A DNA stretch of 64,000 nt from Saccostrea cucullata (Eukaryota), in contig NW_026928122.1 in assembly GCF_032062105.1 (NCBI RefSeq), positions 186,001 through 250,000 of the forward strand. Reading direction: 5' to 3'. How positions within the stretch are numbered: the first letter of the stretch is position 1; every line of letters begins with the position of its first letter. A model generated the notes under the pieces. The model did not search any database. It was not told where the DNA came from and saw nothing but the letters and a program-made list of their open reading frames with translations. Made by a program: the position numbers and the translations under genes. Shown here one piece after another: positions 52,619 to 53,712 of the stretch.

Positions 52619-53387
52619 TTAATTTCTTTTCCTGTAACAGCAGGTAAACAAGGAGGTTAATCTTTCTTTGAATGTTTTTCTCTTTCGCTACAAATGTAAA
52701 AAATACGTATATAGACTAATATCCAAAATGAGTACATATGTAAACATCGACAATTCAATTTGTTAAAAAAGAAAATTAATTCCAGAATAATGCTAGAGAA
52801 ACTTGTTTCCCCATGGATGAAATTCTACAGAAATAAACCTTTTTGGTTTAATGATGTTACCGCTGTGATTTTTATGACTAACAAATGTTTTCATAGCCTT
52901 TAAATCGAAACAATTCAATAGTTGTTCACAATTGGATACTATAAGTGTTGAGACGTTACTCTTCATTTGTATTTAGCACTTTATCAAAATGAGTTCCCCT
53001 GCTTATGAGTGGTAGCGATAGAGTACTTGTTCCAAAATATATATAGAAAATTTTTAAAAAATGAATTCAAAGCAATAAGAAATAAAATAACACAAAGAGC
53101 ACAATGAATTACTTACATTCTGGTGTTTCTTTGATAATCCCGATTTACCACCAACAGCACTCTCATTTTTTATCTGTTCTATAGCGCCCCCGATTATGTG
53201 CTCAACGTATAACTATAAATATTTATACATAATAAAATTAAATTATTCTGCTAAAAAAGCATTTAAAATTTTATTTATATATAGTATAAAAACATTTCTA
53301 CTTCATTCAGCTATTTGTACTTACCACAACTTCCTCAGGATCTGGTTCTACATCCACTTTAACGTTATTGTTTTTATTCGACGCCAT
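52619..53387 (-). CDS. Unannotated small protein (about 62 aa) with C-terminal polybasic, di-cysteine motif; exons 53325-53387, 53117-53173, 52619-52687; non-coding first exon ending at 53630
   Basis: Kozak accATGG; MASNKNNNVKVDVEPDPEEVV|gtaagt ... cag|IKNESAVGGKSGLSKKHQN|gtaagt ... ttttttacatttgtag|RKRKTFKERLTSLFTCCYRKRN*. All phase 0. Upstream donor G|gtaagt at 53630, acceptor (T)9CAG at 53429, minus-strand AATAAA at 52336-52341. Confidence 0.7.
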
Positions 53388-53661
53388 GGTTTGGTGTACA
53401 TCTAAAGAAACTAACGGCATTAAAATTCCTGAAAAAAAAATCAAAATGAAAGAAAATATTATATAAATGTTGTCTTGAGTAAGATTTAAGATAAACTGAC
53501 AAAGCGACATTATCAAACTCATAACTTCCTCCAGAGAAGATTCGCCGAACAAAAAGATAGTGTGAATAAATAGAAGCATGCATGGTTAATATCAGATGCA
53601 TCAAGAGAAACAAAAAAACAACAACTTACCAGCATCATTTTCTATCACACTATCAAAAGCT

Positions 53662-53712
53662 ATTGTGACGTCACTGATTATTTTCCTTCGCAATGTAGCG
53701 ATTGTGACGTCA
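53662..53712. promoter_or_regulatory. Two perfect CRE palindromes (TGACGTCA) just upstream of the small minus-strand gene
   Basis: TGACGTCA at 53666-53673 and 53705-53712, both within ATTGTGACGTCA. Confidence 0.5.

Follow-up and report, generated by a model that had tools for sequence, protein, structure and literature searches.

Two small anchoring proteins come closest in layout to the oyster protein described here. AKAP18-alpha is of low molecular weight, has its lipid anchor and its helix encoded by separate exons and carries adjacent palmitoylated cysteines (PMC2174236, excerpted text), while smAKAP is likewise small, is tethered to the membrane and binds PKA through a single amphipathic helix (PMC12083921 and PMC13025221, excerpted text). 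According to excerpts of the same two articles, the face of AKAP helices (14 to 18 residues) which contacts the docking/dimerisation (D/D) domain is made up of positions 2, 5, 6, 9, 10, 13, 14 and 17 (PMC12083921), and binding to RII needs a small residue at helix position 13 (PMC13025221). A burst of AKAPs including smAKAP is placed at the base of the vertebrates, with few AKAPs being older (PMC12083921, in excerpt). Invertebrates keep D/D domains, and lineage-specific invertebrate AKAPs are expected though described as still uncharacterized in the excerpted part of PMC12608923. No small bivalve AKAP is present among the literature matches listed for oyster, mollusc and Aplysia AKAPs, which comprise titles and abstract openings and have subscription papers outside their scope. 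Biochemical reports of AKAPs exist for Aplysia and Mytilus. Anchors consisting of a C-terminal amphipathic helix with a palmitoylated di-cysteine are represented by the GPCR helix 8 type and also by the anchors of KChIP and SCP1.

The gene under study lies within a stretch of 64,000 nucleotides from Saccostrea cucullata, referred to as the window, whose own numbering is used throughout. The window is eukaryotic DNA with a GC content of 33% and harbours an ML-domain gene, the gene of methionine synthase (MTR), a VWD gene and TKFC. A first-pass annotation had proposed a spliced minus-strand gene for a small protein in the interval separating the VWD gene from TKFC, and a public protein identical to its exons supports this proposal. 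XP_062614738.1 (LOC134276504, Saccostrea cucullata, “uncharacterized”, 118 aa) is 100% identical to exons 2, 3 and 4 plus the coding part of exon 1 and maps to 53717-53630, 53428-53325, 53212-53117 and 52687-52622 of the minus strand. It is thereby flanked by the stop codon of the VWD gene (52295) on one side and the start codon of TKFC (54591) on the other. Since the gene is thus annotated already, the accompanying claim of a “hidden”, undescribed product missed by ORF calling does not hold. No function is on record for LOC134276504 or XP_062614738.1, and neither id occurs in the searched literature, subscription papers being outside its scope.

When the 32-codon exon starting at 53212 was compared with 1.84 billion representatives, XP_062614738.1 was the single match (100% identical); as the representatives are taken at the 50% level, a query of 32 aa misses relatives inside the cluster of XP_062614738.1 itself as well as divergent short ones. 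This cluster has one member on one contig and is present in NCBI and UniRef. A single-member cluster devoid of any found relative is also what one would expect if LOC134276504 were a spliced transcript, non-coding or hardly translated, that heads away from the TKFC promoter region and whose lineage-restricted open frame was called a protein because the upstream ATG lifts it over 100 aa. We regard this as rather improbable, and short divergent orthologues can escape searches. NCBI models of orphan genes are normally backed by RNA-seq introns, and the exon junctions rest here on the public annotation together with sequence signals. We consider LOC134276504 to be probably a real protein gene.

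All exons discussed in the following are on the minus strand. In the public model the coding part of exon 1 (53630..53717) starts with ATG 53717 in strong context, encodes residues 1-29 and is followed by a phase-1 intron. Exon 2 (53325..53428; residues 30-64) encodes an Asn-rich and then acidic segment and contains ATG 53420 in weak context as well as ATG 53387. The 96 nt of exon 3 (53117..53212; residues 65-96) account for most of an AKAP-like amphipathic helix and for a Gly/Ser linker. The coding part of exon 4 (52619..52687; residues 97-118) comprises a polybasic stretch, a KRKT site (T101), an amphipathic helix, the pair C112-C113, a basic end and TAA. A predicted 3' UTR (52336..52618) ends at AATAAA 52341-52336. 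Many of these elements had been noted previously and are indeed present: the GTAAGT donors after 53630, 53325 and 53117, the acceptors before 53428 and 52687, the phase-0 introns 2 and 3, the stop ending at 52619, the poly(A) signal AATAAA at 52341 and an optimal Kozak sequence, ACCATGG at 53390. In addition, a plus-strand AATAAA at 52344 (within 52336-52349) is found two bases from the minus-strand AATAAA at 52341 and probably serves the convergent VWD gene. With AATAAA on both strands two bases apart, the VWD gene and LOC134276504 would have a poly(A) element in common, with their 3' ends overlapping there.

To assess the splice sites we used matrices built from MTR and TKFC introns, 23 of which were inferred via alignment with bacterial homologues; three with an ambiguous best junction were dropped, leaving 20. 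The acceptor at 53428 scores 14.0, above all 20 left-out training sites, and that at 52687 scores 6.7 (above nine), while the donors after 53630, 53325 and 53117 reach 9.5, 8.0 and 4.8 (above 18, 11 and 4 training sites, respectively). Three of the 19 minus-strand GTAAGT motifs of the window fall in this 2.2-kb gap (P 0.026). As some triple of GTAAGT within 513 nt anywhere in the window has a P of 0.15, the donors alone constitute modest evidence.

A conspicuous deviation from the first-pass annotation concerns the acceptor of the middle exon, which had been placed at 53173. This site scores -1.8, below all 20 training sites, has a further AG only 3 nt upstream (about 13 to 87 nt in the training set) and shows a reversed GC step (0.53 to 0.33); on score, AG spacing, GC step and annotation we therefore reject it as the main site. 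The public model instead uses the acceptor at 53212, which lies in frame, free of stops, 39 nt upstream of 53173, is preceded by 33 AG-free bases and coincides with a rise in GC from 0.07 to 0.50. Its matrix score of 1.0 falls just under that of the weakest of the 20 training sites (1.1). Thus annotation, AG spacing and GC step agree in suggesting that the middle exon begins at 53212 and not at 53173, with the splice matrix disagreeing. The previously given products of 62 and 73 aa, resting on the poorly supported acceptor at 53173, are accordingly corrected to 75, 86 or 118 aa, depending on whether translation starts at ATG 53387, 53420 or 53717. The arithmetic of the 43-aa product ascribed to skipping of this exon is right.

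The best-scoring acceptors in this region are the tandem AGs before 53247 and 53250 (tandem segment 53213..53250), which, with 8.1 and 5.3, outscore 53212. They shift the frame and lead to products of 38-39 aa, the stop then lying 77 nt upstream of the final junction. We rejected them as coding acceptors since the 30 nt downstream of 53247 have a GC content of 3% compared to 30-57% in 20 of 20 real exons; they possibly reflect an unproductive splice choice. That the stronger acceptors would yield a premature stop fits a transcript which is non-coding or hardly translated, but introns 2 and 3 preserve the frame, which speaks for a protein-coding gene.

Codon usage bears on the same question. 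A run of 43 open codons is weak evidence, as it arises in 6-11% of non-coding windows (213/3671 to 235/2071). Scores trained on 1233 codons amount to 0.33, 0.27, 0.28 and 0.13 for residues 1-29, 44-64, 65-77 and 65-96, respectively; among overlapping non-coding windows free of stops, 0.4%, 1.5%, 2.6% and 1.5% score as high. Especially the low frequencies for residues 1-29, 44-64 and 65-96 (0.4-1.5%) speak against a non-coding transcript. In contrast, exon 4 scores -0.31, which is reached by 44% of non-coding windows; it hence lacks a coding-like signal, in line with the non-coding alternative. After removal of the GC effect the annotated frame is the best of six in four of six segments (23 of 28 in real exons), namely in exon 1, in the coding part of exon 2, in the added codons 65-77 and, barely, in exon 3 as a whole, the last two overlapping each other; in exon 4 and in the 5' portion of exon 2 another frame ranks first. 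This preference, too, counts against the non-coding alternative, as does the occurrence of two motif-like helices in one and the same frame.

Exon 1, formerly held to be non-coding, is opened by the public model at ATG 53717 and read through in the frame which is the best of six for codon usage. Because of its codon scores and this best-of-six frame the balance of the sequence features inclines towards exon 1 being coding. Its strong context, A at -3 together with G at +4, is shared by ATG 53717 and ATG 53387. Out-of-frame short ATGs at 53638 and 53635 would give rise to upstream ORFs if the transcript began after 53717. Exon 1 further contains two CRE-type palindromes TGACGTCA at 53705-53712 and 53666-53673, the only two of the window (0.4-0.6 expected). 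Both copies of TGACGTCA come from one 28-nt duplication of 79% identity spaced 39 nt apart; as a single duplication gave both, we do not accept them as independent pieces of evidence. Their location inside exon 1 would also suit a promoter role and a later translation start, and CRE-type motifs within a “coding” exon are suggestive of promoter DNA, as the non-coding alternative would have it. In the case of the protein-coding gene the two sites would, speculatively, tie its expression to cAMP.

The basic amphipathic tail with two cysteines, described before, is indeed present in the sequence. Residues 89-118 comprise 11 Lys/Arg compared to one Asp/Glu, and C112 and C113 are the only cysteines of the protein. 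F102, L106, L109, F110 and C113 are located on one face of the C-terminal helix, and T101 (KRKT) represents the one PKA-type site of the tail. XP_062614738.1 has no transmembrane segment; with its cysteines at positions 112-113 of 118 it does not end in a CaaX motif, and an N-terminal Gly2 for myristoylation is absent, the second residue being Asp or Ala depending on which of the two strong starts is used. Where cysteines lie within a basic amphipathic helix, S-acylation and plasma membrane localisation are favoured (bioRxiv 2023.01.17.524453, excerpted text). These features point to a membrane-anchored product, a small peripheral membrane protein, a reading which we consider somewhat better than an even bet, with C112/C113 probably being palmitoylated.

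The 11 Lys/Arg in residues 89-118, taken together with the missing transmembrane segment, Gly2 (from either strong start) and CaaX end, would also suit a small basic protein that acts in the nucleus or binds nucleic acids. The Lys/Arg run at about 92-100 would then serve for nuclear localisation, and the cysteines would carry no acyl groups. We hold this to be quite unlikely, as C113 and the hydrophobic residues of the C-terminal helix share one face, a membrane-binding layout, and the adjacent cysteines have basic neighbours. The putative likeness of the tail to anchors of the GPCR helix 8 type lies in its basic residues, its single hydrophobic face and its neighbouring cysteines; unlike these anchors, the oyster tail ends a free-standing small protein without a transmembrane part.

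Since the acceptor at 53173 omits residues 65-77, a central helix had been lost from the earlier gene model. The 13 codons now added complete a predicted helix of residues 62-78, the most informative feature of the protein. This segment is hydrophobic at eight of eight AKAP face positions (V63, Y66, V67, I70, I71, A74, I75 and I78), is the only 17-mer in XP_062614738.1 to reach this count and has a hydrophobic moment of 0.40. The full face occurs in 17 of 10,977 17-mers from 32 bacterial-locus ORFs and in 0 of 785 from 28 oyster MTR/TKFC exons; in 20,000 shuffles it arises at 0.19% (residues 44-118) or 2.2% (residues 1-118). As unrelated proteins display this pattern at about 0.15% per 17-mer, it indicates amphipathicity and not PKA binding as such. 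The back positions are polar at six of eight, so that the segment fails a stricter filter which asks for seven, and G72-G73 inside it weakens the helix. The N-terminal helix 4-26 is equally amphipathic (moment 0.41 compared to 0.40) and reaches 6-7 of the eight face positions. A single-sequence fold places helices at 4-26, 60-83 and 92-114, albeit at low confidence (mean pLDDT 49).

Position 13 of the central helix is the small A74. The F/Y-A typical of type I is absent from helix positions 1-2, which are occupied by E62-V63 in the 8/8 register. For both reasons type II PKA would be a likelier partner than type I. A scan for a gene with a PKA regulatory D/D domain returned three loci, all of them chance matches. 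Tentatively, and with less than even confidence, we name PKA regulatory subunits as the single best partner candidate for the central helix. With similar reserve the product may be viewed as a small C-terminally palmitoylated PKA-anchoring protein resembling AKAP18-alpha or smAKAP, its anchor being at the opposite end. AKAPs are defined by function, by their binding to the D/D domain of PKA regulatory subunits, and have a targeting domain apart from the helix, for which the polybasic amphipathic di-cysteine tail is a candidate.

With AKAP18-alpha (the short isoform of AKAP7) LOC134276504 shares the small size, the combination of a lipid-anchor exon with a helix exon and the adjacent cysteines. 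The anchor of AKAP18-alpha, however, is N-terminal and made up of myristate and palmitate, whereas the oyster cysteines are found C-terminally in a polybasic helix and Gly2 is missing; there is no Pfam or PDB similarity between the two, and PKA binding of the oyster protein is a prediction. The predicted likeness to smAKAP lies in the small size, the membrane tether and the single amphipathic PKA helix. Yet smAKAP is of vertebrate origin and has an N-terminal myristoyl/palmitoyl anchor and the F/Y-A for RI, in contrast to E62-V63 of the oyster protein, and no sequence similarity between the two was found. The small-AKAP-like function is one by prediction only, and by sequence the protein belongs to neither the AKAP7 nor the smAKAP family.

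The same helix could belong to a membrane-anchored small adaptor binding a partner other than PKA, be it another D/D-fold protein (SPA17, ROPN1L, the DPY-30 group), calmodulin or, as a coiled coil, itself. Such an adaptor, which we rate as a fairly unlikely though serious alternative, would make the same use of the basic di-cysteine tail and of the two or three predicted amphipathic helices, and the face pattern is generic, as the 17 hits among 10,977 background 17-mers illustrate. Moreover, many metazoan non-PKA D/D proteins bind helices of the AKAP type (PMC8339350, excerpted text). The helix, however, fits all eight positions of the register and has a small residue at the thirteenth, which favours PKA, as do the PKA-type site and the CRE-type motifs in the same gene, each of them weak alone.

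If the product does anchor PKA, helix 62-78 would occupy the D/D groove of a dimer of PKA regulatory subunits, type II being the likelier, and the polybasic helix 97-114 would dock on acidic membranes with C112/C113 being S-acylated. Phosphorylation of T101 would, speculatively, loosen membrane binding. A more far-reaching idea, which we consider doubtful, is that of a minimal lipid-anchored PKA type II anchor invented by a bivalve independently of vertebrates, inverted in layout, released from the membrane once its own tail is phosphorylated, induced via the paired CRE sites and tuned by splicing; as part of it, a product that skips exon 3 would keep the anchor but lose the PKA helix. If oysters do have a small membrane AKAP of unrelated sequence, it would represent a convergent solution and provide a simple, testable way into the local cAMP signalling of molluscs, and it would mean that such anchors sit among orphan “uncharacterized” models which homology searches cannot name. 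Should PKA binding fail, what is left would be an ordinary orphan protein, already annotated, whose tail is likely lipidated. The corrected exon 3 makes a specific AKAP candidate, cheap to test, out of what had been a generic microprotein with a lipid tail.

Searches for relatives, which are weak for short divergent proteins and had unannotated oyster genomes outside their scope, yielded none. A word-based search of a protein collection at 27-91 aa revealed no relative with exon 2 and exon 3 as queries, and residues 30-118 matched only XP_062614738.1 itself in a word-based protein search at 64-207 aa. In a metagenome scan two of 314 pattern matches passed; both were dismissed as chance, being located on bacterial-type DNA otherwise dissimilar to the window. 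None of 12 passed in a viral scan, and Rfam gave 0 matches. No AKAP-type model was hit in Pfam, the best model being Adeno_E3_CR2 with an E of 0.49 and 10.7 bits compared to a cutoff of 36. SDF-1 (E 0.033) and a hypothetical protein (E 1.2), obtained from the PDB, were set aside as compositional matches, and no PDB chain matches the helix. In the ESM Atlas the best feature score was 0.84 (exon 3), none was usable for the whole protein, and the structure rows are helix look-alikes under the bar.

Several further observations concern the surroundings of the gene. The divergent neighbour TKFC has its first coding exon (Dak1 domain) at 54591..54789 on the plus strand, about 870 nt from ATG 53717. 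Within 54400-54490 (plus strand) a TATA-like TATAAAAG near 54410 precedes the TKFC ATG, which suggests that TKFC has a promoter of its own, apart from the CRE-type pair at 53666-53712. Strong plus-strand acceptor-like sites are present at 53999 and 54345. At 55560-55760 (plus strand) the end of TKFC exon 2, donor included, recurs 93 nt downstream as a duplicate; this second copy has GTAAGT at 55678, possibly an alternative TKFC donor. A tandem repeat with a period of about 150 nt occupies 59915-60904 in a TKFC intron. A second cluster of three GTAAGT, with no obvious gene on reading, is seen on the minus strand at 28494-28800 between MTR and the VWD gene. In methionine synthase a pair of exons (19904-20214 and 21136-21440, plus strand) is duplicated with 84% identity, with a short tandem repeat at 20223-20801 between the copies; the duplicated exons are possibly mutually exclusive or dead. 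Finally, the VWD gene (plus strand) contains, at 45335-47331, several repeats of 110-140 nt which include small cysteine-rich exons and, at 31612-39507, about 2.5 tandem copies of a unit of about 3.15 kb, introns included, at 98-99% identity, which reflects either an expansion within the gene of very recent date or an artefact of assembly.
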